Source of the DNA: Macrostomum lignano
Lineage: Eukaryota
Direction of reading: 5' to 3'
Length of the DNA stretch: 64,000 bases
Assembly (NCBI GenBank): GCA_002269645.1
Contig: NIVC01000952.1
Location: 214,967 to 278,966, forward strand
Below are positions 2,724 to 62,600 of this stretch, piece by piece. A model generated the notes under the pieces. That model saw nothing but the letters and a program-made list of their open reading frames with translations. It had not been told where the DNA came from and made no database searches. The stretch's first letter is position 1; each line of letters starts with the position of its first letter. The position numbers were made by a program, and so were the translations under genes.

Positions 2724-3191
2724 CTATTTTATAGAGTCTAAAATCGTGCCATCGGCACGCATGCTTTGCATGATACCCCTAAAGTCTTCGGGTCTTTCCT
2801 TCGAGTTATTAATTTTATATAAAAAATACAACGCCGCTTGCCCGCAATAACTTTTGTCAAATGTTTGAAATTGTTCGTGATGATCTCCACATAAACGATT
2901 TTTAGTATGATTAAATTTGTCTTTTATTTCCTGTAACGGAGGAAGCGCGTATGAATCAAAAAAATAAACAAGTTTTGGTTTTGAATAAACTGCTGACCAA
3001 TGAACACCGTTTTCTTTTGTTGTTTCAATATTAACAATGAAAGATCCATATTGTGGTAAGTCTTTGATCTCATCTCGCATAACACATCTGAATGGTTTTA
3101 TTTTTAACTGCCTCGCCCAATTTGTTAATTCGATATTGCTTGTTGTGTCCGTTCCATATCTTTGTTTAAAATCATCCCACGTCATGGTCAT
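2724..3191 (-). CDS. Adenain-like (Ulp1/adenovirus family) cysteine maturation protease
   Basis: Motifs GVHWSAVY (His), YFFDSY (Asp), QFQ (oxyanion Gln) and SYCGQ (Cys) in the expected order; 155 aa; Polinton context. Confidence 0.9.
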   Translation of the reverse strand: MTMTWDDFKQRYGTDTTSNIELTNWARQLKIKPFRCVMRDEIKDLPQYGSFIVNIETTKENGVHWSAVYSKPKLVYFFDSYALPPLQEIKDKFNHTKNRLCGDHHEQFQTFDKSYCGQAALYFLYKINNSKERPEDFRGIMQSMRADGTILDSIK

Positions 3192-3411
3192 TTTATGTTC
3201 CTGAAAAACTCTTGGTTTTAGTTAGTTTCGTAGGTGTGGGTTTTAACAATTCCTTTCTTATTTTATCAGCTTGTAACTGCCTTAATTTTGCTAGTTCTAT
3301 TCGTAATTATCTTCAGCTTTTTTAACTTTTTCTGATTGTTTTTTTATTAAATTATTATTATTATCGTGCTTTGCACGCGAACATGTTGTTCGATTACCCA
3401 TTTTTACAGTA

Positions 3412-4197
3412 CTAAACCTGTTTTATACGTAAAATCACTGTTATTGACTGCCCACCAAAACTTATTAATCTATCGCTTTCATCTACAATCCTAATATAAA
3501 TTGATTGAACATTATATTGATTTAATGGGTAATATATTGGGGTTTGGGGTGCAACAATCATTTTCTCTCCAATTGGAACAGCAAGAAATGGGATTGAATA
3601 AATAATTCCACGTTGAACCAAAACTCCGTTATCGTCTGTTATATAACCACCGTTTGAAATGTCGGTTGTTATATTAATTGTATTTACTCCACCCTCTATA
3701 TTTCCAACTGTATCACCGGTGCTTGATGTGGTAACTATTCGGGAATTAAATCCAAGTATGGTTCTGAGTGAATTTGCAATTGTGAAATCAACCTGATATC
3801 CGGATCCTAGTGATAGTGTGAATCTGCCAGACGGTAAATCAACACCTATAACAATTGCTCCTGCTACCCAATCACCATTAGTTGTTAATTCTCCTTCTAT
3901 ATAAGCATTCAAATCAGTATAGCTATACGCTCCTGGGTTAACGCTAAATGTTGTCCAATTGGCTCCGGAATCTTTAGAATATCTAAATTGATTATTTGTT
4001 GCATTAATTAATTGAGGCATGTTGAAAACCGAAAATAGTATTAAACCTATTTGATAACTTAGGCTTTGATCAAGTTGTAATGGATCGCGCAATTGAATCC
4101 GTTGCTCGCTGGTTGTCATTATAAACTGTAATGTTGTACTAAATTTTGAATTAGTTCGATCTACCAATTGTTTTATAGTATTTAAATTTGTAGTCAT
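3412..4197 (-). CDS. Minor capsid protein (penton, single jelly roll)
   Basis: 261 aa, beta-rich. C-terminus PIYYPLN...IYIRIVDESDRLISFGGQSITVILRIK is typical of Polinton pentons. Lies between the ATPase and protease genes. Confidence 0.82.
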   Translation of the reverse strand: MTTNLNTIKQLVDRTNSKFSTTLQFIMTTSEQRIQLRDPLQLDQSLSYQIGLILFSVFNMPQLINATNNQFRYSKDSGANWTTFSVNPGAYSYTDLNAYIEGELTTNGDWVAGAIVIGVDLPSGRFTLSLGSGYQVDFTIANSLRTILGFNSRIVTTSSTGDTVGNIEGGVNTINITTDISNGGYITDDNGVLVQRGIIYSIPFLAVPIGEKMIVAPQTPIYYPLNQYNVQSIYIRIVDESDRLISFGGQSITVILRIKQV

Positions 4198-4296
4198 TTT
4201 TATAGTGGGAAATTAATTGGACGAAGTCCGCGTTCCGAAGGAACGATCGAACGAAGTTCGCGACCCTATGGGGCGATCGTACCGAAGGTACGCGTG

Positions 4297-5097
4297 CTAT
4301 GCACGATCCTCTTCTTCCTCATTATCTTCTTTTATCAAATTTGTTAAAATTCTATGTTTCCTTTCTAACCTCGGATTGATATAAATATGTTTGTATTGTT
4401 TTTTTTCCCAAATTTTTTTACACATACTTTTAAATGGTTTTGCATCCAACCCGGGATTAAATCTAGCGTGTATATTTTGTAAATCATAGTTATCTAAATC
4501 AAACATTACACAACAACTTGCATTCTTTTTTATAATCGATTCTAATTCTCTAAAGGATTGAGTAAGATAAAAAGCTCCAATTCCATCTCCTCTACCACTA
4601 ACAAAAATTTCCTTTTGCAATTCTTGATCACCGTCATTAATACAATCATCAAAAATAATTAGTGTTTTATCATGTTTTGGAATTTGATCATAGGCTAATC
4701 GGGTTGATACTCTAACAGTTGGGGCTCGATCGGACGAAGTCCGCGACCCTTCGGGGCGATCGGTGATGTTTTCTGGCTGTTGTGCCATTGTTTTACATAA
4801 ATCCTCAATGTCTGCTAGATTAAATCGCGGTTCGTCATCATCCTCATATTGCTCATATGCTCTTAACATTCTAAACAAGACATCTTTTTTTAATTTGTTT
4901 TTTAATCCATGTTTAAGAAATTCATAATATTTTATTCTAGGTTTGTTAGTATAAATTATTAAATTATTATAGTCTAGCATTCCATCGGTTGTTAACAGGT
5001 CATAAACAAAGTGTGTTTTTCCTTTACCTGATCCTCCGATTACTAAACAAAGAAAAGGATCATTTGGAAATATTTTATTGTGTTTTGCCTTTACCAT
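4297..5097 (-). CDS. A32/FtsK-like genome packaging ATPase
   Basis: Walker A GGSGKGKT, Walker B LIIFDD, followed by SGR and LTQS motifs. Confidence 0.92.
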   Translation of the reverse strand: MVKAKHNKIFPNDPFLCLVIGGSGKGKTHFVYDLLTTDGMLDYNNLIIYTNKPRIKYYEFLKHGLKNKLKKDVLFRMLRAYEQYEDDDEPRFNLADIEDLCKTMAQQPENITDRPEGSRTSSDRAPTVRVSTRLAYDQIPKHDKTLIIFDDCINDGDQELQKEIFVSGRGDGIGAFYLTQSFRELESIIKKNASCCVMFDLDNYDLQNIHARFNPGLDAKPFKSMCKKIWEKKQYKHIYINPRLERKHRILTNLIKEDNEEEEDRA

Positions 5098-5145
5098 TTT
5101 TAAAGAAATAATTTAAATAGGCGCGACGGTCGGAGACCTGCGACA

Positions 5146-6618
5146 CTAAAGTGGTGCGTCCCGAACAATCGTGCCATCAGCTTTAGCAATTGACATATAT
5201 TCCTCTAGAAACAATACGTGTGCGTCAAGTGCCTGATTACCGGTTTTATTAATCTCTAACATATAATTAAGTCCAATATTGGCTACGTTTTCTTTCTGTG
5301 CCGTTAGATCATAAACAACCACTGGATGAATGTTTAGAAACTCTGTGGGTGTGTACTGAGGGACGGCATACGCTTCATTTTTAGCATAATCTTGATAATA
5401 TTTTATAAAATCATTAACATTATTATTTGCTATATTTAAATTTAGGGGGTCTTTAACCGGATAATATTGATCATCAACCTGCAGGCGGATATTCTGAACA
5501 TTAAACTCGTTAATAGCTGCAGCCGCATTGTCTGTTGCGGTGGCTGCTTGTTCTGCTATGGCACCGGATTGAAGCCAATATAAATCCCCATTTGCTCTTT
5601 TACTCCTTCTATTTGTTATCTTAAACCAAACAAAAATATATCTCACCCGACGTTTTGATGTCAGTATTTGCCACTGGAATGAATCCTGGTTATTATTAAT
5701 GGTTCGCATAAAATGTCGACGATTCAAATAAAATATTTCCTGATCATGCGTTAACTGATTATCGATGTGTTTTAAAAGTGGGGCTGTTACCTCAATAGTT
5801 GGTACGACTAATTGAATTGAATCTATACGAACTGCTATATCGGTTGAAATTGAGGTTCCATAAAGTATCCTAGGCTGATATCCACCAGATATTTGCAACT
5901 GTATCCCAAATTTTAATCCTTTCCATACCCGATTTGGTGAGAAAAACCCAAATAGTGGAAAGATTGAAAAGTCCTGCTCATATGCTGTTGCTGTTGTTAA
6001 AACCGCGACTGGGAATTTATTCTGACGATCTATAAAACCAGTATTAATATCTTTTGTATTAGTCATAGTGGTTACAACTGGAACTATGTTTGTATTAAGG
6101 TAAACAATTAGCGCTGCAGTATCTGCACCGGCTGCGTTTTGTACATTAGGGAAAACTACTGCTTGACCGTTACCTTTATCCGGCATCCACCCAACATTAT
6201 CACCAACTTGTTTTGATAAATAAGTATAATTTAAATGTTTCAAAACTCCATTAATCTCTGCGGGGTTTGATGATGTCTCAACCTCAGCACCATTAACAGT
6301 TAGTTGAGCTTGGGAAAAACATTTATAAAACCAATCATTTTCTATTATTATTCCGGATCGATCTGCGATATCTCCGGCTGCAAGAGCAGTTCCATCATTT
6401 CTAGTATACAACCATCTAACGCGGAAAAACGCATTTTTCATATCCAATATAGTGTTGGTTGCGCCGATGTCAAAAGTTACCGTTCCAGTAGTAAAGTTAT
6501 TTGAATTATCACTTGTTGGTAGGGTATAATTTAAATCTCTTGCTCTGACCTCATTAATATACTGTCGGTGCTTTTTGAAATGAAATTTATCACTCCACAT
6601 AGTTTTTGTTTCAGCCAT
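5146..6618 (-). CDS. Major capsid protein (double jelly roll)
   Basis: 490-aa beta-strand-rich intact ORF next to the ATPase. Size, position and segments such as FSQAQLTVNGAEVE and RLQVDDQYYP fit a Polinton MCP. Confidence 0.85.
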   Translation of the reverse strand: MAETKTMWSDKFHFKKHRQYINEVRARDLNYTLPTSDNSNNFTTGTVTFDIGATNTILDMKNAFFRVRWLYTRNDGTALAAGDIADRSGIIIENDWFYKCFSQAQLTVNGAEVETSSNPAEINGVLKHLNYTYLSKQVGDNVGWMPDKGNGQAVVFPNVQNAAGADTAALIVYLNTNIVPVVTTMTNTKDINTGFIDRQNKFPVAVLTTATAYEQDFSIFPLFGFFSPNRVWKGLKFGIQLQISGGYQPRILYGTSISTDIAVRIDSIQLVVPTIEVTAPLLKHIDNQLTHDQEIFYLNRRHFMRTINNNQDSFQWQILTSKRRVRYIFVWFKITNRRSKRANGDLYWLQSGAIAEQAATATDNAAAAINEFNVQNIRLQVDDQYYPVKDPLNLNIANNNVNDFIKYYQDYAKNEAYAVPQYTPTEFLNIHPVVVYDLTAQKENVANIGLNYMLEINKTGNQALDAHVLFLEEYMSIAKADGTIVRDAPL

Positions 6619-7351: not shown

Positions 7352-7921
7352 ATGGATGAAACAAAAATTTGTACTACGTGTAAAATTGAGAAACCGATGA
7401 CTAAAGAATTTTTTTGTTGGAGAAATGACACAAAAAAATTTAAAAATCTTTGTCGATCTTGTGAGAAAGTTAAATGCACTATGTGGAGAATAAACAATAA
7501 AGATAAATGTAATAAATATGCAAAAAATAAATATCGCACTGATGAAAATTTCAAAAATATTAGTCTAATTAGAGCTAAAATAACTTGGGCATTGAGAACT
7601 TTTCATGACAAACATTATATCTCATATCTTGGTTGCACAAAAGAATTCTTTTTTGATTGGTTAAATTTCACAAGAAATTATTATGTTCCAAAAAATTATA
7701 CTGGAAAGTTAGATATTGATCATTTCATTCCCGCTTCTTCATTTAGTTACAAAGACGATGATCAGATTAAAAAGTCTGAAAATTGGAGAAATAAAAGATA
7801 CTTAACTAGCGTAGATAATAACTATAAAAAAGTTAAACAACCAACAATTGAAGAATTTGCGAAACAATTGGTGCTATCATGTATTTTTAAGGCTATTAAA
7901 AATGAACCAAATAGTGTTTGA
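7352..7921 (+). CDS. Free-standing HNH-family endonuclease with N-terminal CxxC...CxxC zinc finger
   Basis: CTTC...CRSC, then YLGCT...LDIDHFIPASSF...ENWRNKRYLTSVDNNYKK, matching the H-I-P...N...N pattern of viral HNH/EndoVII-like nucleases. Confidence 0.75.
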   Translation: MDETKICTTCKIEKPMTKEFFCWRNDTKKFKNLCRSCEKVKCTMWRINNKDKCNKYAKNKYRTDENFKNISLIRAKITWALRTFHDKHYISYLGCTKEFFFDWLNFTRNYYVPKNYTGKLDIDHFIPASSFSYKDDDQIKKSENWRNKRYLTSVDNNYKKVKQPTIEEFAKQLVLSCIFKAIKNEPNSV

Positions 7922-9509
7922 AGGAGGATTTTTAGACTTACAAAAAGGATTAACAAGCTTACCACCAATCTTTACTACTGGGAGGTATACGGGTGAGCTA
8001 CACCTACCATCAATGAACTTCACAGGTTAACCCGTGGCCTGAGTGAGGAAGGCAATGTCCTTGCTAGTCACTATTTGTGGCGACATCTCCAAATTGCGTG
8101 AAACCCGTCATACAGCTTCAAGTACCACTTCAAGTGAGAAATCTTTTGAAGGAACAGAGGTAACTCCTCTTCCCAATCGGACTTCGTCCGCGAACCTATG
8201 GTTCGATGGTAACAAGCTTGAAGACACGGTGGCAATGCGCAGCCAAGCTCCTAAGTATTTTAAATATAAGGAGAAGGTTCAGAGAGCAGACGGAGATGGG
8301 CGGTAATTATCGCCGCTTAAGGTGTGCTCCAGCCTCATTCGAAAGATTGAGGGTAAACAGCCGGGGACTAGACTGGATTTAAGATTAAATCCTGACAATA
8401 CTCCAAAATCTGATTCAATTCCAATAAATGGGATTGATTGGTTAGCATACTATCACGACTTAGCATATAGAGATGCTGACAAGAACCCGCCCGAGGAAGC
8501 ATTAAGATTAAAACATGAAGCCGATCAAAAAATGATTCAAGGATTAGATAACTTGCAGGGATTATCGGTAGGTCAAAAATTAACTAGGTGGATGGTTAAA
8601 AAGATCTTGCAGTCTAAAGTTAAATTTGGTTTGGGAATTAATTATAATCAACATGGAAATAATTGTGTTGAGTGTTTACTATTAAGTGGCAGTGGGTTAA
8701 GTTCTGATGAGGCAAAGATTCTTCATAAAGAATATCGAAAACCTAAATTTTATAGAAAAATCATGAACTTCAAAAAGAATGAAATTTGGTATGCTGATTT
8801 AATGTCGATGCCGAAAGATCTGGGATATAAATATATCTTAACCATATTAGATGGTTTTACTCGATACGCGTGGGCTGTTCCTTTGAAATCCAAAAAAGGA
8901 GAGGATGTTGCTGCTGCTTTTAGAAGTCTTGGAGAAAAAAGCGAACGTTTGTGTGTTGACGAAGGAAAAGAATTTTACAATCCTCACATGTATAAATTGT
9001 ATCATTTTGAAAAAGGACAAGAAAGGAAAAAGGACGCGAATGGGGAGTATATTAATAAAATTTATTCTATTTATGGAGAGAGTAAAAACGCATTAATAGA
9101 AAGATTTAATAGAACTTTAGGTAAGAAATTATGGTTTCAGTTTAGTCTTAATGCTAACCAAAAATGGGTAAAAATATTACCAGACGTAGTGAAAGATTAT
9201 AACAATTCATATCATTCGGCGATAAAGATGACTCCTCAACAAGCTTATAACAATCCTGAAAATGTTAGGGTTACTTTTGGAGAATTTGAAAAAAAGAAAA
9301 CTAAAGATTTTAAAGTTGGTGATTCTGTTTATATCTATAAATGGAAAGATAAGTTTGAAAAGGGAAGAAAAGGATATTGGAAAATAAGTGAGAAATTTAC
9401 TATCAGTAAAGTTTTAAATACCAATCCCACAACCTATATAATTGCTGATAAGGATGGTGAAGAAATATTGGGTTCTTTTTATGAGAACCAGATAATGTCT
9501 GCGAACTAA
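7902..9509 (+). CDS. PLA2 (parvovirus VP1u-like)-retroviral-type integrase fusion, join(7902..8027,8361..9509), 424 aa
   Basis: Joining the exons gives HLPSMNFTG|PGTRL...PINGIDWLAYYHDLAY (PLA2 Ca loop and HD motif). This is followed by the integrase core WYADL...LTILDGFTRYAWAVPL...CVDEGKEF...LIERFNRTL (DDE) and a Maverick-type C-terminal domain FKVGDSV...GEEILGSFY. Confidence 0.88.
8028..8360 (+). ncRNA. Group I self-splicing intron (IC1-like), 333 nt, no substantial internal ORF
   Basis: 5' exon ends in U8027; intron ends in G8360. Helices read by eye: P1 CAGGU/GCCUG(8037-41) with U.G wobble; P2.1 GUCAC/GUGGC; P3 CAUCUCC(8084-90)/GGAGAUG(8292-98); P4 UGCGUG/UGCGCA; P6 GCC/GGU; P7 G[A]GAGCA(8282-88)/UGCUCC(8325-30); P8 GGCGGU/AUCGCC; P9 CCUCA/UGAGG with GAAA loop. 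P, Q, R and S elements are recognisable. Confidence 0.93.
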
Positions 9510-10075: not shown

Positions 10076-10129
10076 TTTTTATAACAGAAAAAGACCCTTC
10101 GCGCCTGCGGCGCGTGCGACGGGTTATAG

Positions 10130-10423
10130 AGAATTGGAAGTGTTAGAAGTGTTGGAAGCGTTGGAAGCGTTGATACGATACAAAATACCCAGCAAACCGA
10201 AGCGAACGACGAGAGTGTGTTCTCACCATTCAAAAAGAATTAATCGTTGTAAGTGTGAAATGGGGAGATTGACCGAAATGAAGCGAGGATGAGCGAAGCG
10301 AGTTGAGCGAAGTGAAGACGAGCGATAATGAAGGGAAAACGAGTCATTTCACACTGATAAAGGGTTAAATTGTTTGCAATGGTGAGAATGGTTTGCTGGG
10401 TATTTTGTATCGTATATACTACT
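10130..10423. repeat. Probable right terminal inverted repeat region of the Polinton
   Basis: Short 9-nt tandem repeats (GGAAGCGTT), an internal inverted repeat, and terminal ACTACT at 10418-10423. The following TCTGTC would be the 6-bp TSD. The partner TIR is not in the window, so the inner boundary is approximate. Confidence 0.65.
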
Positions 10424-10905: not shown

Positions 10906-13184
10906 CCTGTCAGCAGGCTGGCCGCCCCCGCGCACCAACACCTGGTGCTTGAGGCTCTCCTGAATGTAGGTCAGCTCCTCCCGGCTAATCCAGGGATTGA
11001 CGGCTGGCGAGCTGTGCGCCAGAATGCTCCAGGCGATGAACCATGCGATGCCGGATGCACCTGGAGTATGACAATCGTTTGCGAGCGTTGCTATGCGTGA
11101 TTGCTGCTATTGGAACTGTTGCTATGCCGATGGCCCTGGGAACTCACCAAACGTGTAGAACACTGCTGGCCAGCCGCCTAGGAAATCGGTGGAGCACAGG
11201 TAGCCGCTGAGCGGCAGGCCAATCACCGTGCCCATGTGGCTGCCTGCTCGAGTAGGAATCATTTGGCGATTGGTTCACTGTTAGTTGCTATGCGGATGAT
11301 TGCTACGCAACTGCGTAGTAACAGGGTTTTTGCTAGTGAATGACTGCTACAAGGGTATGCAGATGGTTGCTATGCGAATGGTTGCTACGCGGATGATTGC
11401 TTTGCTGAGGGTTGCTATGCGGATTGTTCCTTTGCTAAGGGTTGCTATGCGGATGGTTCCTTTGCTAAGGGTTGCTATGCGGATGGTTTCTTTGCTAAGG
11501 GTTGCTATGCGGATGGTTCCTTTGCTAAGGGTTGCTATGCGGATGGTTCCTTTGCTAACGGTTGTTATGCCTATGCGGATGTTTGCTGTTGGTGGTTGCT
11601 ATGCGCATAGTAGCTACGCGGATAGTTGCTATATGGATAGTTGCTATGCGAATGGTTGCTATGCCGATGGTTGCTATGTTGATGGTTGCTATGCGGATGT
11701 TGCTATGCGAATGGTTGATGCTATGTTGATAGCTGCTACGAGGATGGTTGCTGTGCAGATGGTAGCTATGCGGATGGTTGCTATGAGGATGATTGCTATG
11801 TGGATGATAGCTATGCTGACGGTTGCTATGCGGGTGGTTGAGATTAACTTTTAAACTTTCGCGTACCTGAAATGATGAAGACGGCCATGGTGGTTCTCTC
11901 GACCGGCGGCGCCCACTGGCTCAGCATGGCATTCAATGAGGGAAACGTAACGCCCTGTCGAGATCGGGATGAACTTGGAGTTATGAGTACGGATTTTTGA
12001 AAAAAAATGCAGAAATTCAGAGCCCTCGCTGACCTCGCCGACGCCCTCCAGCACGCGCAGGCAGATTAGGGCGGCCACGCCCCAGTGCGCAGCCAGGGGG
12101 GTCAGCAGCGTCAGGGCCGCGGTCCACAGAATGCCGATGCCGAGCACCCACTTGGCGCCGAAGCGCTCGGCCAGCAGGCCGCCGGGGATCTGCGTGACGA
12201 TGTAGCCCCAGAAGAATGAGCCCAGAATCAGGCCCTGGGTCTGCTCGTCCCAGCTGAACTGCCCGGCCTGCGGGGCCAACGTCGGATCAGGGATGCACCG
12301 GTAGGGCAAAATGCATCGGGGAGGGCAAAATGCATCGGGGAGGGCAAAATGCATCGGGGGGGGGGCAAAATGCATCGGGGGGGGGCAAAATGCATCGGGG
12401 AGGGCAAAATGCATCGAGGGGGAGGGCAAAATGCATGGGGGGCAAAATGCATGGGGGGCAAAATGCATGGGGGGGCAAAATGCATGGGGGGCAAAATGCA
12501 TGGGGGGCAAAATGCATGGGGGGCAAAATGCATGGGGGCAAAATGCATCGGGGAGGGCAAAATGCATCGGGGAGGGCAAAATGCATCGGGGGGGGGGGCA
12601 AAATGCATCGGGGAGGGCAAAATGCATGGGGGCAAAATGCATGGGGGCAAAATGCATGGGGGGCAAAATGCATGGGGGCAAAATGCATGGGGGGCAAAAT
12701 GCATGGGGGGCAAAATGCATTGAGGGGCAAAATGCATTGAGGGGGGGCAAAATGCTTGGGGGGGGGCAAAATGCATTGAGTGGGGGGGGCAAAATGCATG
12801 GGGCAAAATGACAATGTATCGGGGGGAGGGCAAAATGCATTGAGTGGGGAGGGCAAAATGCATGGGGGATGTATCGTGGGAGGTAAAAATGCATCACTTG
12901 TGCAAAATATGACGAACTTGAATAGCTTAGCTTAGAAGCAACAAAAGAAATCGAGCCAAAGTCCCTCGGCTTACCCTCGCAGCCGATGTGTCATTCGAAG
13001 CAGAGTCAGGCGGGCAGACCTCGTCATCGCTGGGCCCGGACTGATTCAAACTCGCAGGCGATATCCTGCCCGTTGCGTTTACCATGGCAACCAGAGCTAC
13101 GCTGAGGTTCACGCGCAGCATGTACACGATGGCGAAGCCCATGAAGCTGAGCACGCATAGCAGAGCGCGCTGGCTGACCGCCAT
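10906..13184 (-). CDS. SLC17/sialin-like anion:cation symporter (MFS), 5' five exons only
   Basis: Exons translate to [34 protein letters not shown]; [25 protein letters not shown]...RVLEGVGE; [20 protein letters not shown]; [13 protein letters not shown]...GWPAVFY; [13 protein letters not shown]...[18 protein letters not shown] boundaries seen where checked. Confidence 0.9.
11270..11835. repeat. Degenerate ~15-bp minisatellite (GGTTGCTATGCGGAT) in SLC17 intron
   Basis: Direct reading of the sequence. Confidence 0.9.
12301..12865. repeat. G-rich ~17-21-bp minisatellite (GGGCAAAATGCAT(C)GGG) in SLC17 intron
   Basis: Direct reading; it explains the spurious HFAP/GAKC ORFs. Confidence 0.95.
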
Positions 13185-14877
13185 CCTTCGCTGTGTTGTG
13201 CTATCAGTGCTGTGCAGCTGAGCGAAGTACTCTGTGCACTAACATTAGTTTGCCTGACCTATTATTGCACTATTTTATAATGCTAAACTACTGAGTGTCA
13301 AATACTCGTACTTACTAAGCACAAGGCAAAGGTAAATAAATGCTATAAAATTGTTTCGAAAAGTCAAAGTGGTTTAGTGTTCTGTAACTGACTCCTGACC
13401 TGACTCTGAACTGGTTTTGCTTAATAGGACGCACACACGCAACAACACTATACACGCGAACCTCTATCTCGGTCCAACCCAAAGAGCTGGGGGAGGGCCG
13501 ACTCGTGTTTAATTGTGGCGGGCGGAGTTTCTTACCCCACCCCTCTGTCCCGCCACAACACCCCCCCCCCAATGTACATACTTCCCAAGTGTACATGTAG
13601 TAATGAATGTACACTATAGAGAAGTGTACAATTCTCTCTTGGTCGACGTTCTCCAATGCCGGCAGTGCTTTGGCCAGATATCTTTTTTTATCAAATTAAA
13701 AGCTTAAAATACTGATTTTTTAAATCAGTTTTTAACCCTTAAGAAAAATACTTCAAGCAAATAATTTCGATTTTTTGCTGCTCCTGAAAGCAAAACAGTC
13801 AGTCTACTTTGGTCGCCCTCGAAAAATATGGTAATTGTAATTGTTCAATTAAAACAGCACCCTCAAAAGTTCAATCCTAACCTTAGCAATAGCATTCACT
13901 CGTATCAAGAACCACGGCTAGTACATTCACATTGTGGGCTTCTAAAATTAAAGTAGTGCTTGTGCTTATTTTATTAATGCTAATTATTCTTATACCTTTT
14001 GAGCTCGAGAAGATTGATAAGAAACCCCCTCTCCAGTTCACAGTTTCCCTCTCCAGTTGTATTTTTTCAAAGGACAATTCTTTCAATGAACTTTTGAACG
14101 CACCTCCAAGCAAACGCATGCAAGTCCCTGAAAATGAGTCCAGCAATAAAAACCATACTATTCTACTTGCAAACAGTAGCGTATCTAGAATTTAATTAGA
14201 AAAGGAGAACATGCAGAAAAATCTGATATGAATTTTCGCGTCAGCGGTCCCTAAATCAGCAATCAGATTGCACTTTATCCTGCCGACCGGAGCTGCATTT
14301 AAGAGACCAATTGAGATGCCAGAAATGCAAAGAAAGTCCGCAGTTAGCTTGAAATCAAGTTGCTCAAACTCAATTTTTATTTATTTATATTTTTTGCGAA
14401 AGCGTCTGTGCCACAAACTAAAACAACATTAATTCGATTTTTTGTTTATTGATGAGGCAGCTTTGAGTCGGGAAGCTGTACGAGTTAGCTCGTACTTTTT
14501 TTTGGCCTGCTGCAGGTTGCTGCAGTTTTAATTGTGGGCAATTGGATCGATCGCTGCGATTTAGCGGCCCAAAGCGCTGCAGAAGACGAGTGGGAAAAGC
14601 TTTCTATGGAGATGTCAGCAGCAGTTCCTGTATGATTCATGCGCGAAATTCAGGGCAGAGCGTAATTGCCAAATGCTGGGCTGCAGCCACCGCAGGTCTT
14701 TGATGCCGCTCTGCTCCCGCACCCAGTGGGCTCATTGTTGACCAGAACCGTCTTGGGAGCGAAGAGCCGATAAAATTTTTTGTTCTGGGATTTGAAAGTG
14801 CAGAGAAGATTGACTAATGGGCTTTATAGACAGCTTTTAACATTTTATACAACTGTTGAATTCTCGGTTTCTGCTGT

Positions 14878-15325
<448 letters not shown>

Positions 15326-16545
15326 CCATCGGCATATTTGCTAGAATGCATGCTCTGAACGCGCCCGAGTCGAGCAGGTTCGCAACCAGCTGCGATCCGG
15401 CTCCCAGTCAAGGTTCAAACTCGGCAAGCCCCCCTTCCGAGAATTAATTGGCAATGCCGATTCCTGCAATTCTCGTCACCTTTCACAGGAAATTTCACAG
15501 GAAATTATTCCTGCCGCCAAGCAGACGACTTTCCGAAGATCACAGGGACACAGCAATGTTTTTATTGATCTTTCCGATACAGCGGGCTGCCTGCCTCCCG
15601 CAGCCAGTTGCGAAGCGCAGCAACGGGGCACGCAGATTTCTTAGAAAAAACCGCGGCCTTGCCGGCTCTGCCGCCCGCTGTTTGCTTTCCTTTCTGGCGC
15701 CTTTGCACCCGGCAGTTTTAATTCTCAGGAGATTTGCATCTTCATCCCATTCCTGTTTTACTAATCCGGCAACGCAGTTCCATGGGATCAGCCCCACCCC
15801 GCCCCCAATTGCTCCCCACCCATTATTTATCTGCCAGCTCCTCTCCTCTTCTCCCTTTTCTCCTCATCCATTTTTCTTTTTTTCTCTCTATTCAGAAATC
15901 AGAGCAAAGCTAAGTTAAGCAGAGTTGGCCGCGGTTAGCACTGGGATGAATAGGCTGCAGTGCGCCACCGCGGGTCTGGCCCCCGTTTTTGTTATCTTCA
16001 TCTTTTTGCAACCAGTCATTTTTCTCCCCTGATCCCAAGTAAAAACGCCAAACTGAGTGCAACAATGGCCCAGCTTTCTGTAGCGGAGATTCCGCTCAAG
16101 CCTCACCAAAGTAAAGCCCGAAGGGATTCAATTTGGCAAACAGCCCCGGGGGTCTCCCCGGATTCAAAAGAATTTCTCCCGTGGAATCTGCGCCAGTCAG
16201 TGAAATCCCGAGATCTCTGGGCCCTGAACTGGATTGATCGGCCCCAGGAGCAGATTGGTTTTGTTTTAATCCCAGAAAATATCTGCGGGAAAAATTTACT
16301 CGCGTGTTGAAGCTGAGCCTCCAATTGCGGAGCTCCACATTTCATTGAAATTTTCCTGCAGCCCTGCCTGCCAATTGCTTTCACTTAATTAATTAGCCGA
16401 TTCATGGACTCTGGCAGCCCCGCATCGGGCCGGCTGCAGCCCTCGGCGGCACGACTTGACAGCCCCCGGCCCGCTGCTTCCAGGAGCGGAAATCGGAGAT
16501 TTCTGGGACTGGCGACCGGCTTGCCTCTACCGGGCTGATGAGAGC

Positions 16546-16618
<73 letters not shown>

Positions 16619-17471
16619 TTCTGTCTGTGTGTCGCCTGAGCATGCGCAGCTGTCGCACTCAAGCTATCAGCCAGTCTGCATGAAGTGTCCTCACTGTGAA
16701 AGTTCTTAGAATTTTTCCTTGCCAAAACTGCGTGACAGCCGAGAGACGCTCAGGTAGAGCAGGTGAGCTCGCCTGCCCAGATCGGACACGCGCCGGCAAT
16801 GGGGGATAATTCGGAGAGCTGATGGGAGAACAGCAGATCTTCAGAGTTCAGAGAACTGTTGAGGCAGAGGCTTTTAACCCCGATTGAGTCATCTGCAAGA
16901 ATTAGCTGAGTAAAGCAACTACTCTTTAGATGAAGCGGTGCAGCTCATGCAGGCAGCAATTTCGCATCGACCCCGCAAGATGATACCCGTTCGGTTCCTG
17001 CTGTATAACGTAGAAGGTCCTTGAGTGGACTAGAGGGAACAAAATTATACAAAACTGTAAACTAAACTTTCTCTTAGGTATGAATATGAATGCGCTACAC
17101 ACGTGAGGCTGCGCTTGCAATTATTTTATTTTTGGTCCGGGCTGTTAAGGAAAAGTGCTGGAATTGAAACCGGAAGAAAACCGGCCATTCCTCCCTAGCC
17201 GTTTTAGCTATCCGGAATTCATTTGAACGGATAAGAGTTTTTGCTTAGAAATAGGGCCCGGGCTCTGATTGGCCCAGGGAAGTCACGTGCTGGGGTGGTG
17301 GGGCAAAAAGGGGTGCTGTCACAAAAATTCTAAAAATAGCAACATTCTTTAGCCAATCAACCAATGAGATTTGCTTAGCCTGTTTTCATTCAAGTCAGCT
17401 CGTAGCTTGCAGCCCTCAGGGCGGCTTCAACTTTTGAAGTAAGTCACGGGTTCGCAGATCGACGCCTTGAC

Positions 17472-20400
17472 TCAGCCGCAGTCAGCTGTCCCGTCTTCGT
17501 TCCTGAGCTGCTTGCCGGAGTCAATTAGGTTCAGGGCCTCCCGAGCGGCGGGGCCGCCTCCGGCATCATTGTTACCTTCTCCGCCTCTCCGGCCGGCGTA
17601 GACGTCGCAGCAGTGCACCAGGAAGTCGATCAGCTCCACGATGAAGATCATCGTTAGGCCGACAAAGATCGACAGCAGGCCGCCGACCTGGCTAAGAAAT
17701 GATGTCAGCGACAGGACCTCCTTTTCCTCTACTTGGTGCAGGTCGAAGTTCGGTCGGATGAGCTGGATGGACAGCAGGTTCCGCTCCAGGATGCTGACAT
17801 TTTGCACCAGCTGGAAAGCGGAGTCCAGTCGGCCCGCGCGCTCCAGCTCGATGGCCTTCGCGTAGATCTGCATCTCCGGCCGCTGCTGCAGGCGGCTGTA
17901 GACGCGGGTCTGCAGCAGGTACAGCTGCCACGCCTTGGTGGGCCAGTCGGAGGTCGACCGCTCGGTCTGGTAGCTGTAGAAGGCGCACGGAATGCTGCAA
18001 CTCTCCACCACGTCCTTGGAGTACTTGGAGATCACGGCCTGCTTGCAGCGGATGTGCTCGTACGCCCTGTCCAGGGCCGCTTCGCAAACTTTGCTGCTGC
18101 TGTTGCCGGCTGTGCAGGCGCCCAGGGGCAGAAATTCTTGGAGACCGGTGCAGTAGGTGATGTTGCTGCCAGCCTCCTCGGGCACCAGCGGGTACTCGAT
18201 GGCCTGTTGCGGTGGTTCAAGTAACTGAGGTGAGCAAACGGGTGATCTTTTATTGACGTTTTTAGTGAGTTGTGATGATCCGTCAGGATTTGGTGAATTT
18301 TCTAAGAAACAAAGGGTCAGCAGGGAGCCGCTGAGGTCACCTGACAGCCGCAGGAGGCTCGGATGTCCATCTGGATGGTCATCTGCCTGCAGGCGTCCTC
18401 GCTGTAGCTGTACTCCCTGCCCTGCAGCCCCAGCGACTGCGGGGTGTCCGCTGTCCGGCGAGCAGCGCCCGTACGGCGGCTGCTTCTGGACGTTCAGCAC
18501 GTGCTTGAGCTTGACCTCGGTGAGCGAGCCGGACTTCAGGTGCACCGCGTTGTTGTTCACATCCGGGTGCGTGTCGCCGGAGTGAATGGTCAGCACCGCG
18601 CCAGACAGCTGCGTGTTGATGTCCTGCGGGCGGGGCGAGCCAGGAATCAAGTCCTCAATGCCTTATTGAATGCACCGGTAGGGGGCAAAATTGAATTTAT
18701 TGCAGACTTGCGCTGCGGACCGCGCTAAGTGCTCGGAATGACTTGCAGCATGAAGGCAAAACAATAAAGACGGAAGCGTACCGGCCAATTTATAATTCAG
18801 ACCGATGAAAGGCAAAAAGATAATGTTTCATATCCCTCATTTGCTATTTGTGTTGGAGATCCCCTATTGTCACCTACGCCACTCTCGATCAGCCTGCAAT
18901 CGATCCGGATAATCAGTCTGCAATCTAATCAGTCTGTAATCTACGCTCGTAATAAGTGTACAATCTAATCAGTGTACAATCTAATCAGTCTGCAATCTAA
19001 TCAGTGTACAATCTAATCAGTCTGCAATCTAATCAGTGTACAATCTAATCAGTCTGCAATCTAATCAGTGTACAATCTAATCAGTCTGCAATCTAATCAG
19101 TGTACAATCTAATCAGTCTGCAATCTAATCAGTGTACAATCTAATCAGTCTGCAATCTAATCAGTCTGCAATCTAATCAGTGTACAATCTAATCAGTCTG
19201 CAATCTAATCAGTGTACAATCTAATCAGTCTGCAATCTAATCAGTGTACAATCTAATCAGTCTGCAATCTAATCAGTGTACAATCTAATCAGTCTGCAAT
19301 CTAATCAGTGTACAATCTAATCAGTCTGCAATCTAATCAGTGTACAATCTAATCTGTCTGCAATCTAATCTGTCTGCAATCTAATCAGTCTGCAATCTAA
19401 TCAGTCTGCAATATAATCAGTGTACAATCTAATCAGCCTGCAAGATAGTCTGCAATCTAATCAGTCTACAATCTAATCAGTCTGCAATCTAATCAGTCTG
19501 CAATCTAATCAGTCTGCAATCTAATCAGTCTGCAATCTAATCAGTGTACAATCTAATCAGCCTGCAAGATAGTCTGCAATCTAATCAGTCTGCAATCTAA
19601 TCAGTGTACAATCTAATCAGCCTGTAATCTAATCTGTCTGCAATCTAATCAGTCTGCAATCTAATCAGTGTACAATCTAATCAGTCTGCAATCTAATCTG
19701 TCTGCAATCTAATCAGTCTGCAATATAATCAGTCTGCAATCTAATCTGTCTGCAATCTAATCAGTCTGCAATCTAATCAGTCTGCAATCTAATCAGTCTG
19801 CAATCTAATCTGTCTGCAATCTAATCAGTCTGCAATCTAATCAGTCTGCAATATAATCAGTCTGCAATCTAATCTGTCTGCAATCTAATCAGTCTGCAAT
19901 CTAATCAGTCTGCAATCTAATCAGTCTGCAATCTAATCAGCCTGCAATCTAATCTGTCTGCAATCTAATCAGTCTGCTATCTAATCAGTCTGCAACCTAA
20001 CTAGTCTATGCTCGTAGTCAAACATAAATCTTCAAGCCTGCAGCTCACCTGCAGGTAGCAGTCGGTGCAATAGAAATGCTCCGGGCTCCACTCGTTGTCC
20101 AGGTACACGGCCATCTCAACCAGAGACGCGTTCTGCCGCAGCTTCTCGTCGATGTCCAGCGTGAAACAGTTCAAGAAGCTGCCGTGAACGAATGCGTGGA
20201 AGCGGCCGGCCCAGAGGTCCAGCGGGCTGGGCGCGAACTCGCGGGCAGTAGTACTGGTTGCGGGCGCTGCCGTTGCGCAGCAGCACCTTGCATTCCACGA
20301 TGAAGTCAACGAGCTCGTGGCCCAGCTGGCTGTCCTGGCCGCTCGGCAGGCTCTCCAGGAAGGCCGGCAGGCCGAAGGAGCCGGTGAAGTAGTGGTACTT

Positions 20401-20814
20401 GTGCCGCGTCTCCGGCTTGTCGAAGTACTGCCTCCTGGCCGCGACCTCCAGCGCCATCGAGAACTGTCGTGGATTCTTCCAGCCGTGCTGCCGGATCAGC
20501 GACTTCCCGCGCGAGGACAGCGGCCGCATGTTGCAGATGGTCAGCGAGGGGAACGGCGAGCTGGCGTCCTTCAGCACGCGCGGCGGGTGCATGACGTCAT
20601 ACTCGAGGAACTGGCCGACGAGGAAGCTCAGGCAGACGAGGCAGCTGGCGAACAGCATCAGCACGAAGAAGGTCCACAAGAGGCGCAGCCGGGTGGACTC
20701 GGACTTGACGATCCGCGGGATGCCCCGGATGGTGGTGTTCTCGCAGAAGCGGACAAACTGGCGGCGCAGCTCGGAGCCGCGGCCTCTGGGCGGCGGCGGC
20801 TGTGGCGGCGGCAT
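17472..20814 (-). CDS. DEG/ENaC/ASIC-family ion channel (about 3 exons; two apparent frameshifts near 20250 and 18450)
   Basis: FCENTTIRGIPRI, TM1 LWTFFVLMLF..., FPSLTICN, NCFT, PYGRC, Cys-rich thumb, and TM2 FLSQVGGLLSIFVGLTMIFIVE. Confidence 0.9.
18905..20000. repeat. 16-bp minisatellite (CAATCTAATCAGTCTG / ...GTGTA) filling the DEG/ENaC intron
   Basis: Direct reading. Confidence 0.97.
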
Positions 20815-21039
20815 GGCGGGGGCAGCTGCTGGCTCGGCGAGGCGCTCCGCAGGGCTGCCTGCATTTTGAAGGCTCGGCTGGCCGGCTTGTGCGAGAGGCG
20901 AAGCGGCCGGATTGGTTGAGCGGTGCTGGCGGTCGGGGATCAGAGGGCAGGGCGGGCAGTTTTGGGAGGGAAATGGGATGCGAGGAGGAGGGGACAAGGA
21001 GACCTGTGGCCAGAGTCTATCATATCGTCGGTTATGAGG

Positions 21040-21370
21040 AGGGCCGTAGCCCGGAGGTCTAGCTTGGCACTGATGTGCCAGCGGCCCAGGTTCGATTCCA
21101 AGTGCAGTCACATTCCATTGGGGCTGAATTGGAATCTCGGCTTGGCTCTGCTTGTGCAATTAACGGCCTTGACGGCCAACCCCAGTGTGCATGCCTAACG
21201 ATAGATAAAGTGTGAGTGTGTACCTGTGCGTATGACTGCGTACGCATCCGCGCGCTTGTGTGCCTGCTCAGGGGAGTCGGCGAACTGGGCAGCAATGCCT
21301 CTCGCCGGTTGTGTGACAAAGTCGCTTAAAGTGCGCCAGGATGCAGAAAGCCCCCTGTCTCTAATCTACG
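21040..21370 (+). mobile_element. tRNA-derived SINE, copy 1
   Basis: A-box-like TAGCCCGGAGG and B box GGTTCGATTCC; body shared with the copies at ~33970 and ~62070. Confidence 0.75.
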
Positions 21371-22539
21371 CTCGTAAAACGTTGGTTAAGAGCTATTGCT
21401 GACAGATCCAGTTTTATTTTACCTTTTAAGCTGGATTTGTTACAGAGACACTTTGCTTGGCTCAAAATGTAAGCTTCTGTTTTTTAAACCAGCCAAACAA
21501 TAAAACTCCTTTCTGCTGCAAAATATACTTTTATGCCCAGCTAATAATAAGAATAAAATTAATTCTTAATTACACCTGTCCTAACGGGCAGATGTGCAAC
21601 GGCTGCTCAGTCCAAAGGACTGGGGGGGGGTCGCCACACACATTCAATTATCCCAGCTAATGCTGGCAAACACCCTCTCCAGCTCCTTACGGCCTCCACC
21701 TTATTTCTAAGAAACTGATCGTGGCGTCCTGTCGCTTCAGCTGTCCATGCCGCAAAACACGAGCAGACAAGTAATTAAAGCAGAGAATATTGAGAACCGT
21801 CTTTGATGACATAAAACACGAGAGCCAACCCGATGAAGCGTGGCCATAAATGCGATTCAATAGACAATAGAGGACAGATCTCAAACCCTGTCTCCCTGAG
21901 CACTGCCCGCCCTCCGCAGCTGAAGTGTCGCAGATACTTCATGATTGGCATTGAAATTCAAGCCAGAGTTTGCGCCAGCCAGTTCAGCTTGTACTCGTGC
22001 AAATCTCCTTTAATTTGCTGATGCAGGGCCTGTTTGATTGCACAGCTTCCCCAGCTCTGATGGAGCCCACGGTTCGTTCGTCCTCAACTTTCAATTAGCT
22101 TTTGGATTTGACCTGGGCGCCCGAAATGCAGTTTGGCGGAGGCTGGCGACCGGCGAAATCCCCCCGGTGCTGAGCTGGGGGAGTCTGGGAATCCCGGCTG
22201 GGACAAATCTAATTTCCACACTGGCTTTCTCAGCCGCCGCTCCGCAGCACTTCTTCTTCCGCGCTCCGCGAATCGTTTTGCCTGCTTCCGCTGTCTGCGT
22301 CCCTACCGGATTCGCCCTGATCGAGTTCTGCTTTGCTCGGCTCTCACCTGCCCGCCGTCCCCGCTCTTCATGCTCTTTGAATTTTTTAGTTCACTTCATG
22401 GCTTGGCCTCAACGCTGTGCCGCCGTGGCCTGCGCTGAGTCATCGCATTTAATTAACGGCTACAACTCACTCTGACTGGCGACTCCAGCAGCTCACACAC
22501 GGCGCCTCCTTACCTGACCTTTATCTCTGCTCTCGATTC

Positions 22540-23165
22540 TTCAGCCCAGTGTCTCTCCCTGTATTCTGCATTCCTACCCCCTTCTATTCCCTCTCCACCC
22601 CACGTCCATCTCTCATCTCTAATCTCTTATCTGTCATCTGTCATCTTTTATCTCTCACTTCCCATCTCTCATTTATTATCACTCTTCTATCGTCCCTCAC
22701 TTCTTGTCTCTCCCCTTCCATCTCTCATCTCTCATCTATATAACTAAATCTCTCACCTCATCTCTTATCTCTTATCTCTCTTATCTCTTATCTCTCTTAT
22801 CTCTTATCTCTCATCTCTTATCTCTTATCTCTCATCTCTTATCTCTTATCTCTTATCTCTTATCTCTCATCTCTTATCTCTTATCTCTTATCTCTTATCT
22901 GTCGACTGTCATCTTTTATCTCTCCCCTCTCATCTCTCATCTCTCATCTCTCATCTCTCATCTATAATCCCTCACTTCTTATCTCTCCCCTTCCATCTCT
23001 CCTCTCTCATCTCTTTATACCATCTCTAATTTCTCGTCTCTAATCTTTTATTTTTCACCTCTCATCTCTCATCTCTCTCATCTCCTTTCATCCCTCGTGT
23101 CTCTCTTATTTCTCCTTTCTCTCTTTTCTCTTTTCTCTTATTTCTCCTATCCTTCTCGTCACTCC
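22540..23165. repeat. TC-rich low-complexity tract (TCTTATC/TCTCATC)
   Basis: Direct reading. Confidence 0.9.
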
Positions 23166-23364
23166 TTAATCCGTATCAGCTGTACCAAACAGCTGGAATT
23201 TCTTAAGGCAAATTTCGCAATCTCTTCGCAATATTCTTAATTAGCGATCATCCTCTCCAGTCCACTCTTAGCAGCTGTCCGTCTCTTTTTGCACCACTTT
23301 GAGTCTCAATCAGGTTTCACCTTGTTTATTTAATAGGAAAAAAATTCACATCCGCACAGGTGAT

Positions 23365-23765
23365 GCCAGTTCACCAGTTCACCAGTTCACCAGTTCACCA
23401 GTTCACCAGTTCACCAGTTCACCAGTTCACCAGTTAGGCAGTTCTCCAATTCACCAGTTCACCAGTTCACCAGTTCACCAGTTCACCAGTTCACCAGTTA
23501 GGCAGTTCTCCAGTTCACCAGTTCACCAGTTCACCAGTTTACCAGTTCACCAGTTTACCAGTTCACCAGTTCACCAGTTCACCAGTTCACGATTTCACTA
23601 GTTCACCGGTTCTTCATTTCACCAGTTCACCAGTTAGGCAGTTCTCCAGTTCACCAGTTAGGCAGTTCTCCAGTTCACCAGTTCACCAGTTCACGATTTC
23701 ACTTGTTCACCGGTTCTTCATTTCACCAGTTCACCAGTTAGGCAGTTCACCAGTTCACCAGTTCA
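23365..23765. repeat. 8-bp tandem repeat (CCAGTTCA)n with variants
   Basis: Direct reading. Confidence 0.95.
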
Positions 23766-24157
23766 CCTGGTCTGTACCGGGGCCCAGTTGCCAAGCTATC
23801 AGATTTCCTAACGGCCGTTTAAGCCGCCCTCTGCCCCACGATTTTCTCTCGCTCGGACACCCGCAATCGATAGCTGCCCGGCCCGCTGGACACATTCCGC
23901 TGTCGCGACTCGGCCACCGGGTCGAACACTGCGCCCTGCACCCGGAAATTGAAATCGCTGGTTTGCCCTCCTCCAATTTCCCAGCTGCCAGCCGGATAGA
24001 ACTCTCCCACTCGCCTCTGCAACACTGAGTGGCGCAGAAGTCTTCTGCAGCTGAGAGCTTCATGCCACCTCATACCAGCGATTTTCCATTGGCTTGGGAA
24101 ATTGGGGGCGGTTTGGGGATCAACTTTCTGCTTAATCAAAAAGCTTTTAGTCTGCAG

Positions 24158-24724
<567 letters not shown>

Positions 24725-25291
24725 GTGTAATTTTTCCTTGCCCTCTACTTGCAGTAGCAGATTAAACAAGTAAGATGTGTTTCTCTAAGTATTCGTAGGC
24801 TGCAAATCTGAAAAGCTGACAAACAAATATTTCAGGGGTTGCGCAGATTCTGCGGCTCAGTGAGGCGCGATGGATGGCCTTTGCAAAGCTGCGGCTCCAT
24901 CCGGGCAGCTGACTCGTATAATCCACAAAATTTTTCAACGGCTAGCGAGGATTTGTGGAAGCTTGACAACCGGTGCGCACTTGAAATTCCTATCGAAGCG
25001 GTGGTCCCAAACTGCTCGCCCGGACTTAAAGGGGCCAAAACAATGAAGGCCTTCTTATCAACTGCTGGCTCCAGTGCACCGAAGGGGATGTTGTCACAAG
25101 CGCGGACTTTCCACAGGGTCCGGTGGAAATGAGAGCCAGATTGGCTCCAGTATGACAGTCAGAGTCAGCACTCGATTGCACACAACACTTGAGAATTGTT
25201 CACCAGCCATCAAATGAACCTTTCAGTGCAAAGTGGCAAAAAAATAAGTACGAGCCGTGCCAGCGTCAAAGAAGACGCCAAGAGCAGATGG

Positions 25292-26823
<1,532 letters not shown>

Positions 26824-26953
26824 GGCTCTAAGACTGCCTCCTTCCAGCCAATGGCAGCGCGAGCAGCCCATAAAAACAGCCAGACAAAAGCGGCCGCACA
26901 GAAGTCAAGAGTGGGCGGCTACTCCGAGCCAACAGCGAGGACCCAAAGCAGCG

Positions 26954-29584: not shown

Positions 29585-29639
29585 CCCCGGGGGGTCCGAC
29601 TGGGGGCTCGGAGCTTCAGCTAAAGATTAGAGGGTGGTG

Positions 29640-30740
29640 GGAGCGGGGAGGCCTGAAGATTGGAGGATTGCGGGAGCGGGGAGGCCTGAAGATTGGAGGA
29701 TTGCGGGAGCGGGGAGGCCTGAAGATTGGAGGATTGCGGGAGCGGGGAGGCCTGAAGATTGGAGGATTGCGGGAGCGGGGAGGCCTGAAGATTGGAGGAT
29801 TGCGGGAGCGGAGAGGCCTGAAGATTGGAGGATTGCGGGAGCGGAGAGGCCTGAAGATTGGAGGATTGCGGGAGCGGGGAGGCCTGAAGATTGGAGGATT
29901 GCGGGAGCGGAGAGGCCTGAAGATTGGAGGATTGCGGGAGCGGGGAGGCCTGAAGATTGGAGGATTGCGGGAGCGGGGAGGCCTGAAGAGTGGAGGATTG
30001 CGGGAGCGGGGAGGCCTGAAGATTGGAGGATTGCGGGAGCGGAGAGGCCTGAAGATTGGAGGATTGCGGGAGCGGAGAGGCCTGAAGATTGGAGGATTGC
30101 GGGAGCGGGGAGGCCTGAAGATTGGAGGATTGCGGGAGCGGAGAGGCCTGAAGATTGGAGGATTGCGGGAGCGGGGAGGCCTGAAGATTGGAGGATTGCG
30201 GGAGCGGGGAGGCCTGAAGATTGGAGGATTGCGGGAGCGGGGAGGCCTGAAGATTGGAGGATTGCGGGAGCGGAGAGGCCTGAAGATTGGAGGATTGCGG
30301 GAGCGGGGAGGCCTGAAGATTGGAGGATTGCGGGAGCGGAGAGGCCTGAAGATTGGAGGATTGCGGGAGCGGGGAGGCCTGAAGATTGGAGGATTGCGGG
30401 AGCGGAGAGGCCTGAAGATTGGAGGATTGCGGGAGCGGGGAGGCCTGAAGATTGGAGGATTGCGGGAGCGGGGAGGCCTGAAGATTGGAGGATTGCGGGA
30501 GCGGGGAGGCCTGAAGATTGGAGGATTGCGGGAGCGGGGAGGCCTGAAGATTGGAGGATTGCGGGAGCGGAGAGGCCTGAAGATTGGAGGATTGCGGGAG
30601 CGGGGAGGCCTGAAGATTGGAGGATTGCGGGAGCGGGGAGGCCTGAAGATTGGAGGATTGCGGGAGCGGGGAGGCCTGAAGATTGGAGGATTGCGGGAGC
30701 GGGGAGGCCTGAAGATTGGAGGATTGCGGGAGCGGGGAGG
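29640..30740. repeat. 33-bp G-rich minisatellite, ~33 copies, just downstream of the Cys-loop stop codon
   Basis: Unit GAGCGG(G/A)GAGGCCTGAAGATTGGAGGATTGCGG. Confidence 0.97.
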
Positions 30741-62437: not shown

Positions 62438-62600
62438 AACTCATATATGCCTATATATTGGCTATTATATAAGTGTGGACTAACTGGATGATAGTATACA
62501 ATACAGCACCCCCAAAAAGAGCAATGTACAATATATATGACAGGTGATCCTTGTGTACTATAGAAATTTCCATTGTATACCTGTTCTTCCATACTATGGC

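Follow-up and report, generated by a model that had tools for sequence, protein, structure and literature searches.

The insert at positions 8028-8360 of the window (the whole 64,000-nt stretch of DNA analysed here) is almost certainly a real group I intron, and it interrupts a PLA2-integrase gene of a Polinton residing in an animal genome. The ribozyme is of a known kind, its setting in an animal nuclear protein gene is new, and the natural series around it is unusually complete. The multi-copy population of three intron types, together with its nuclease genes, forms a stronger part of the story than the single intron. Taken as a whole, the system is likely to be one of nested parasites: a mobile group I intron living on a Polinton, which itself lives on the animal genome.

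Read in frame, HLPSMNFTG is followed by a stop at 8028, and PGTRL continues from 8361 in the same frame. The initial annotation had described this PLA2 motif as split by 333 nt opening with an in-frame TAA, which translation confirmed. The 333-nt insert begins with TAA, ends with G and is preceded by U; in-frame stops occur in it at 8028, 8040 and 8304. Its G+C content is 0.477 against 0.39 and 0.35 in the exons, and its fold has a z-score of -2.93, with none of 100 shuffles equally stable. A covariance-model search of the region matched 8018-8351 to RF00028 (64.6 bits, gathering cut-off 50, E 3.9e-16). The whole-window Rfam scan with fast filters gave no matches, having missed this one because of a filter effect. 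In an intronless copy from the same genome (L073), the two exon matches abut (2176/2177) within an open 424-aa frame, so the splice site is fixed exactly and independently of any manual joining; the boundaries are those earlier proposed from the frame that exact removal of 8028-8360 restores. In the PLA2 domain, the insertion point is in the G-P-G loop, behind the glycine codon.

Table 1. Features of the intron, its host gene, the element and the flanking animal DNA in the window
Feature	Position	Strand	Basis or remark
Candidate virion module	2724..6618	-	Size, gene order, motifs
A32-type packaging ATPase	4297..5097	-	PF04665 29.4 bits, above cut-off
Free-standing HNH-like nuclease ORF, 189 aa	7352..7921	+	Overlaps exon 1 start by 20 nt; PD-(D/E)XK ORF in this slot in other copies
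Exon 1 (42 codons), PLA2-integrase gene	7902..8027	+	Translation; N-termini homologous to uninterrupted relatives P0023, P0025-P0027
ORF-less group I intron (type A)	8028..8360	+	RF00028 64.6 bits, helices, L073 allele; IC1-like with P2, P2.1, P5abc and two extra hairpins
P1	8023-8029/8035-8041 (span 8023..8041)	+	Exon end paired to internal guide; U8027.G wobble at 5′ splice site
P2	8043-8049/8058-8064	+	Pairing by coordinates
P2.1	8067-8071/8077-8081	+	Direct reading of sequence
Catalytic core	8084..8330	+	RF00028 match and pairing by coordinates
P3	8084-8090/8292-8298	+	7/7 pairs
P4	8095-8100/8236-8241	+	Pairing by coordinates
P5	8105-8108/8226-8229	+	Pairing by coordinates
Two optional peripheral hairpins in P5 extension	8176..8205	+	Absent, cleanly, from 303-nt variant
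Extra hairpin	8178-8190	+	Direct reading of sequence
P6a/b	8248-8273	+	Pairing by coordinates
P7	8284-8288/8325-8329	+	G-site pair G8284-C8329; bulged A8283; G8282-C8330
P8	8299-8317	+	Pairing by coordinates
P9, GAAA loop	8333-8352	+	7/8 pairs
P9, P9.0, terminal G8360	8333..8360	+	Terminal A in 22/37 type A copies
Exon 2, rest of PLA2-like domain fused to retroviral-type integrase	8361..9509	+	PF08398, PF00665
Right terminal inverted repeat, at least 324 nt	10100..10423	+	Ends ACTACT at 10423, then host DNA
Animal host genes flanking element: MFS transporter, ASC/degenerin channel, Cys-loop receptor, Wnt	11854..48882	.	Encoded in host DNA beside element
Wnt	31889-48882	-	Same contig as element

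The window copy contains both the P3-P7 pseudoknot, with its G-C guanosine site and bulge, and the P4-P6 scaffold, and P5a/b also pairs by the coordinate check. Most of the structure sketched in the initial annotation was found at definite coordinates (Table 1): the P1 guide with U.G at the 5′ splice site, the terminal G, a perfect 7-bp P3, the retained G-binding pair with its bulged A, and the P5abc-like, P6, P8 and GNRA-capped P9 elements. The P10 that it considered possible is a 4-bp duplex of -7.5 kcal/mol. The compensatory changes claimed for P4 and P7 stood as covariation, but the change in P4 gives a U.G wobble in place of a G-C pair. P9.0 is mismatched in the window copy (AG/CA, as in 10 of 37 type A copies) and reads AG/CU in 27 of the 37. 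The architecture is IC1-like, with P2.1 and an extended P5abc present; a tentative assignment to subgroup IC1 follows general features of that subgroup and the available text of PMC3679873.

Genome-wide we counted at least 92 intron-bearing places, with three intron types at one site; such place counts are lower bounds and are inflated by duplicated regions. Wnt and other host genes are duplicated in the assembly, so the places are not independent insertions. With 7900-8700 as the query, the intron was present in all of the best 40 of 204 candidate places, at 86-100 % identity. The RF00028 search of the genome resulted in 28 further places (72.7-91 bits), which represent type B and lie in the same gene of a second Polinton family; the insertion site was identical in all 23 of the 28 that could be anchored. 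Type C, with a different core and shared peripheral parts, occupies the site in 24 of 40 scored places. Its RF00028 scores of 33 and 29 bits are below the cut-off (E 7e-7 and 2e-4), and its 3′ end could fall in frame at any of three G positions (2534, 2540 and 2543 in L077). Of 40 scored places, just 3 run across the junction without a break, and the site is therefore close to saturation. For comparison of copies, 78 loci were reduced by 10 without an anchor and 8 duplicates to 60, comprising 37 of type A and 23 of type B.

Several individual copies showed further peculiarities. The type C example L077:2210-2543 (G000:C103) shares P2.1/P5abc and differs in P4, P6, J3/4 and J6/7; it perhaps belongs to another subgroup. 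Mosaic types also occur: in L060 a P2 that begins like that of type C is combined with a type A core, and types B and C (L031, L077) have in common an elaborated P8 that is lacking in type A. About 830 nt are inserted in the P8 region of one type C intron (L080:360-1190), with imperfect inverted ends and the look of a small transposon fragment; we rejected it as a candidate nuclease ORF, as it contains none. Two truncated and diverged (73-74 %) type C relatives, L081 and L082, have kept the core and P9 pairing and lost the 5′ part.

Conservation of the fold was summarised over 42 pairs. Between types A and B, 33 are the same, 3 show one-sided and 6 double changes, and between A and C the figures are 22, 2 and 18, with the exon strand and guide of P1 changing jointly; none is broken in either comparison, which is partly by construction since the helices were assigned by hand, and the three types amount to few independent events. 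The double changes agree with the earlier description of the ribozyme as covarying. P1 is intact in all 37 type A and all 23 type B copies. Among the 21 type A copies of 333 nt, six carry two compensatory double changes in the first hairpin of the optional segment, and a 303-nt type A variant lacks exactly the two peripheral hairpins (the deletion was mapped in L003 only). On the opposing side are the P9.0 mismatch of the window copy, a P5 mismatch in 6 of 21 copies and a broken G-site pair in 2 of 21 type B copies.

The terminal nucleotide is G in the window copy and in 23 of 23 type B copies. In 22 of the 37 type A copies it is A, with the standard G-site pair retained. This terminal-A class always has a distinct exon 2 start and includes all 11 copies with a free-standing PD-(D/E)XK gene. 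A terminal A is a departure from a near-universal group I feature, one with a precedent: the sea anemone mitochondrial intron ND5-717 is spliced though it ends in A, according to the available text of PMC8146996.

Regarding the host gene, exon 2 matched PF08398 just below the cut-off (E 0.0017), and the PF00665 integrase match had 31 bits in the window (E 3e-7, cut-off 32.6) and 39.7 bits in type B. PLA2 and integrase are joined in one protein in five of seven outside homologs, and the G-P-G-T loop is uninterrupted in P0023 and P0025-P0027. Exon 1 has a pN/pS of 0.21 in type A (12 distinct sequences) and 0.18 in type B (7 distinct); judged by this ratio, it is under purifying selection. It can be translated together with exon 2 only if the intron is removed. 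In-frame ATGs are present at 8532 and 8592, from which the integrase could arise without splicing. Uninterrupted PLA2-like domains were also seen in shorter frames at a minimum of 150 PF08398 places in the genome, which form a separate multi-copy family (e.g. L084). One PLA2 relative from the viral contigs (L085) carries no interruption and did not match RF00028.

By its sequence features the element is a Polinton/Maverick (adintovirus), with the integrase and ATPase read in the window and pPolB and the repeat spacing taken from sister copies. In six sister copies that also hold the intron (C2140, C4889, C3109, C506, C5207 and C2506), a pPolB gene (PF03175) is flanked by the inverted repeats. 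The terminal-repeat matches end at query 321-330 in most copies, and inverted pairs are 17.1-17.5 kb apart on other contigs. On the minus strand, by size, order and motif, we take 2724-3191 to be a candidate protease, 3412-4197 a candidate minor capsid and 5146-6618 a candidate major capsid gene. No family or structure match was obtained for the capsid and protease candidates, and a comparison with the candidate capsid of L085 gave marginal similarity (E 0.007). A 483-aa ORF at 1262-2713 (minus strand) contains about six tandem 17-aa repeats and may encode a fibre-like component of the virion.

The host is an animal, probably a bilaterian. Prospero domains, which are not known outside bilaterians, occur in the assembly; a mir-124 search of the assembly gave no match and is uninformative on the host. 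The placement of the intron in a Polinton protein gene of an animal nuclear genome, proposed in the initial annotation, is upheld by the integrase, pPolB and Wnt, and the gene is more exactly a PLA2-integrase fusion, open to 9509. Elsewhere in the window, 58000-64000 is a second AT-rich block (G+C 0.31-0.39) without long ORFs, and long simple tandem repeats in the host DNA at 11300-12900 and 24000-27000 give rise to spurious ORFs.

A nuclease-like ORF lies directly upstream in all 37 type A copies, HNH-like in 26 and PD-(D/E)XK in 11. Residues D123, H124, N147 and N156 of the HNH-like ORF are invariant across seven giant-virus homologs. In the family search one of eight members matched HNH_4 (E 0.049), and the nearest named Atlas cluster is HNH (0.89). 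The model of this ORF had no PDB match at E<=0.001, and its top fold matches were mostly HNH domains with E>0.7. In type B, a PD-(D/E)XK ORF lies inside the intron as a loop extending from P2.1 and closed by a long stem (-21.9 kcal/mol), and it reads into the core; no nuclease ORF was present upstream in the four type B copies tested. The intron-borne ORF is 61-62 % identical to the free-standing version, has D65, E76 and K78 invariant and matched RE_Eco47II slightly under the cut-off (E 1.4e-5, 25.2 bits against 25.9). The fold of the PD-(D/E)XK ORF resembles type II restriction enzymes, with EcoO109I as the best PDB match (E 1.2e-4), and the type B intron ORF is thus a predicted PD-(D/E)XK nuclease with a restriction-enzyme fold. 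Three intronless copies also carry the HNH-like gene upstream, which means that nuclease and intron are not strictly coupled.

Between types A and B the exons are 59 % identical (pS about 0.8), whereas the intron is 97 % identical over P1-P2 and 94 % over P5abc; the P4′-P7′ core is 72-77 % identical. Intron parts at 94-97 % against exons at 59 % point to lateral movement between the families. The intron-bearing L070 differs from the intronless L073 at 5 of 120 nt upstream of the site and at 2 of the first 150 nt downstream. Type C differs from L073 at 11 of the first 30 nt after the site and at none of the next 90, a co-conversion-like foreign tract such as co-conversion would leave (available text of PMC3984707). 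We lean towards nuclease-driven homing as the way in which the intron moves.

We also searched viral sequences for relatives. An 18-nt core motif was found in at least 122 viral contigs, and 70 of the 80 examined align to the window intron, the best at 63 % over 293 nt. The 12 translated viral intron loci include genes that we take, by eye, to be giant-virus-type capsid and RNA polymerase genes. Of 80 viral intron loci, 8 have a relative of the HNH-like ORF, which was located inside the intron in all four tested. None of 29 giant-virus PD-(D/E)XK homologs lies near an intron core. The single-sequence search of viral contigs with the PD-(D/E)XK ORF yielded 0 of 17 candidates and the alignment search of metagenome contigs 0 of 593. 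The search of a phage collection returned only four weak 48-nt matches, which were disregarded. The composite intron is also present outside this assembly, since four of seven outside PD-(D/E)XK homologs end in tails whose reading frame continues through the same ribozyme core; one of these tail-bearing homologs belongs to a cluster of 30 members, with contigs of 7-65 kb among 15 listed. The related cores and the intron-encoded HNH-like relatives point to giant viruses as the source, in line with the ribozyme exchange with viruses suggested in the initial annotation. Separately, giant-virus-type contigs (L144, L145, L151, L122 and L152) were seen to pack three to four group I introns into 3 kb, along with HNH or GIY-YIG-like ORFs; several of these introns lie in capsid genes.

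Since, to our knowledge, Polintons encode no RNA polymerase, the gene would be transcribed by host polymerase II. The intron would then excise itself in two guanosine-initiated steps, with P1 setting the 5′ site, P7 binding G and P9.0/P10 setting the 3′ site, and excision would give the full fusion protein despite the opening in-frame stop. Spread between Polinton copies would take place by homing at the DNA level. In the window's family the free-standing upstream nuclease may help the ORF-less intron (collaborative homing), and in the sister family the same PD-(D/E)XK gene, looped out of P2.1, would turn the intron into a composite mobile one. Both the ribozyme and the HNH-like gene may be part of a pool in which giant viruses of protists share. 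The ribozyme is probably functional, which conserved pairing and purifying selection on exon 1 support indirectly, and there is good reason from the sequence to expect that the intron splices in the animal. The proposal in its full form is tentative, and we would stop a little short of calling it probable: that bilaterian Polintons carry living group I introns that work in polymerase II mRNA, come from a giant-virus pool, are caught at both stages (nuclease beside and nuclease inside), and form with their nucleases a set of rivals competing for one site.

The copies could also be read as a real intron that now splices poorly and is multiplied as a passenger by whole-element copying, with the integrase made from internal starts or other copies and PLA2 supplied by uninterrupted genes. 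The type A copies ending in A (22 of 37), the internal ATGs and the at least 150 uninterrupted PF08398 matches fit such a passenger, and the selection seen on exon 1 may have acted before the intron arrived. Against it stand the compensatory changes within type A, variation that mostly keeps pairs, a deletion that takes exactly two peripheral hairpins, the terminal G in 23 of 23 type B copies and the three different cores kept at one site, and we regard it as improbable. In four contig-level runs no junction joining 8027 to 8361 was among those listed, and one assembled contig spans 7766-8395 with the intron retained; such contigs drop rare forms and are silent on splicing. Removal of the insert by the spliceosome is barely credible: the window copy does have GT at 8026 and AG at 8359-8360, but this span is 335 nt and shifts the frame, and the terminal AG is absent in 27 of 37 type A and all 23 type B copies.

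Concerning movement, an intron that splices could spread when Polintons that replicate together undergo ordinary recombination or gene conversion, or it could do so through reverse splicing, with the upstream nucleases serving, for example, competition between elements. The L060 mosaic means that plain recombination does occur, and this explanation also draws on the HNH-like gene kept by intronless copies and on giant-virus PD-(D/E)XK homologs that are free-standing in 29 of 29 cases. Near saturation of one site, the short foreign tract adjoining it and the presence of one nuclease family both beside and inside the intron speak against it, and it appears rather unlikely to us. It is very improbable that the element comes from a protist symbiont or contaminant misassembled into animal contigs. 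The nearest relatives of its intron and HNH-like ORF come from giant viruses, and neither the left junction nor a target-site duplication was seen for the window copy; however, the element sits on a 615-kb contig with Wnt and other animal genes, ends sharply at 10423 followed by a host repeat, and recurs in dozens of copies across different contigs. Moreover, four runs from one organism and four studies cover 29-30 of 30 bins (one of them may be the source of the assembly).

With a multi-copy group I intron in a protein gene of animal chromosomes, two old questions become directly testable: whether group I ribozymes can work in animal nuclear mRNA, and whether the entry of an adjacent nuclease gene is how mobile introns arise. 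The system also connects animal Polintons with the mobile gene pool of giant viruses and carries a warning that ORF-based screens will call such intron-bearing genes broken. In a literature search mostly outside subscription journals, no group I intron was reported in an animal Polinton or an animal nuclear protein gene; the supplements of PMC12220804 and the database of PMC11835236 could hold animal entries. The novelty claimed in the initial annotation thus holds for the animal nuclear setting, for which we found none in print, and not for polinton-like viruses, as protist cases have been published (PMC12220804, available text). These are RF00028 introns in polinton-like viruses of Paulinella, Desmodesmus and Rhodomonas, only a few protist groups. 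Like the window intron they match RF00028, measure about 300-380 nt and interrupt a protein gene in a polinton-class virus that integrates; there the gene is a short one upstream of the capsid gene, whereas here it is a PLA2-integrase gene in an animal host with linked nuclease genes.

Bodo saltans virus and other giant viruses, in the accessible part of PMC5871332, resemble the present case in having introns in protein genes, HNH-type ORFs and related cores and HNH family, and their ORF-less intron offspring are thought to use trans-homing. They are cytoplasmic, have protist hosts and their own RNA polymerase, in contrast to the present element, which resides in the DNA of an animal nucleus. 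Nuclear IC1 introns of rDNA, such as Tetrahymena L1925, share P2/P2.1, a complex P5abc, the P1 guide and the P7 G-site. The sections available of a review confine nuclear group I introns to the rRNA genes of eukaryotic microorganisms, unlike the window intron in a protein gene of an animal genome (PMC3679873). Group I introns in animal protein genes are described from mitochondria of sponges, placozoans and cnidarians (PMC11835236, PMC9240083, PMC8146996; available text); in contrast to the window intron these are mitochondrial, mostly IB4 and from non-bilaterian hosts. Among animals, a survey of 42,459 introns lists, in its available text, only placozoans, corals and sponges, mostly with mitochondrial introns (PMC11835236).

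Adintoviruses and animal Polintons with PLA2X have, as here, a PLA2-like gene, integrase, ATPase, pPolB and terminal inverted repeats. The available part of their description mentions no group I intron and refers to an intron once, for another group of viruses, and PLA2 carries a pX-like domain there but is fused to an integrase here (PMC8502044). A paper on nematode Polintons, in its available text, offers no more than a guess that such an intron was the origin of an HNH domain (10.1101/2023.08.22.554363), and collaborative homing is raised as an idea in the accessible part of PMC11296320. The closest parallel to the nuclease arrangement comes from phages, where collaborative homing likewise involves an ORF-less intron and a free-standing nuclease by the host gene, plus a composite form, and where a nuclease moving from beside to inside the intron is the route proposed for the birth of mobile introns (PMC3984707, available text). 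According to the same text, collaborative homing was shown experimentally, in phages only, whereas in our case it would operate in a eukaryotic element, with both stages found in one genome.
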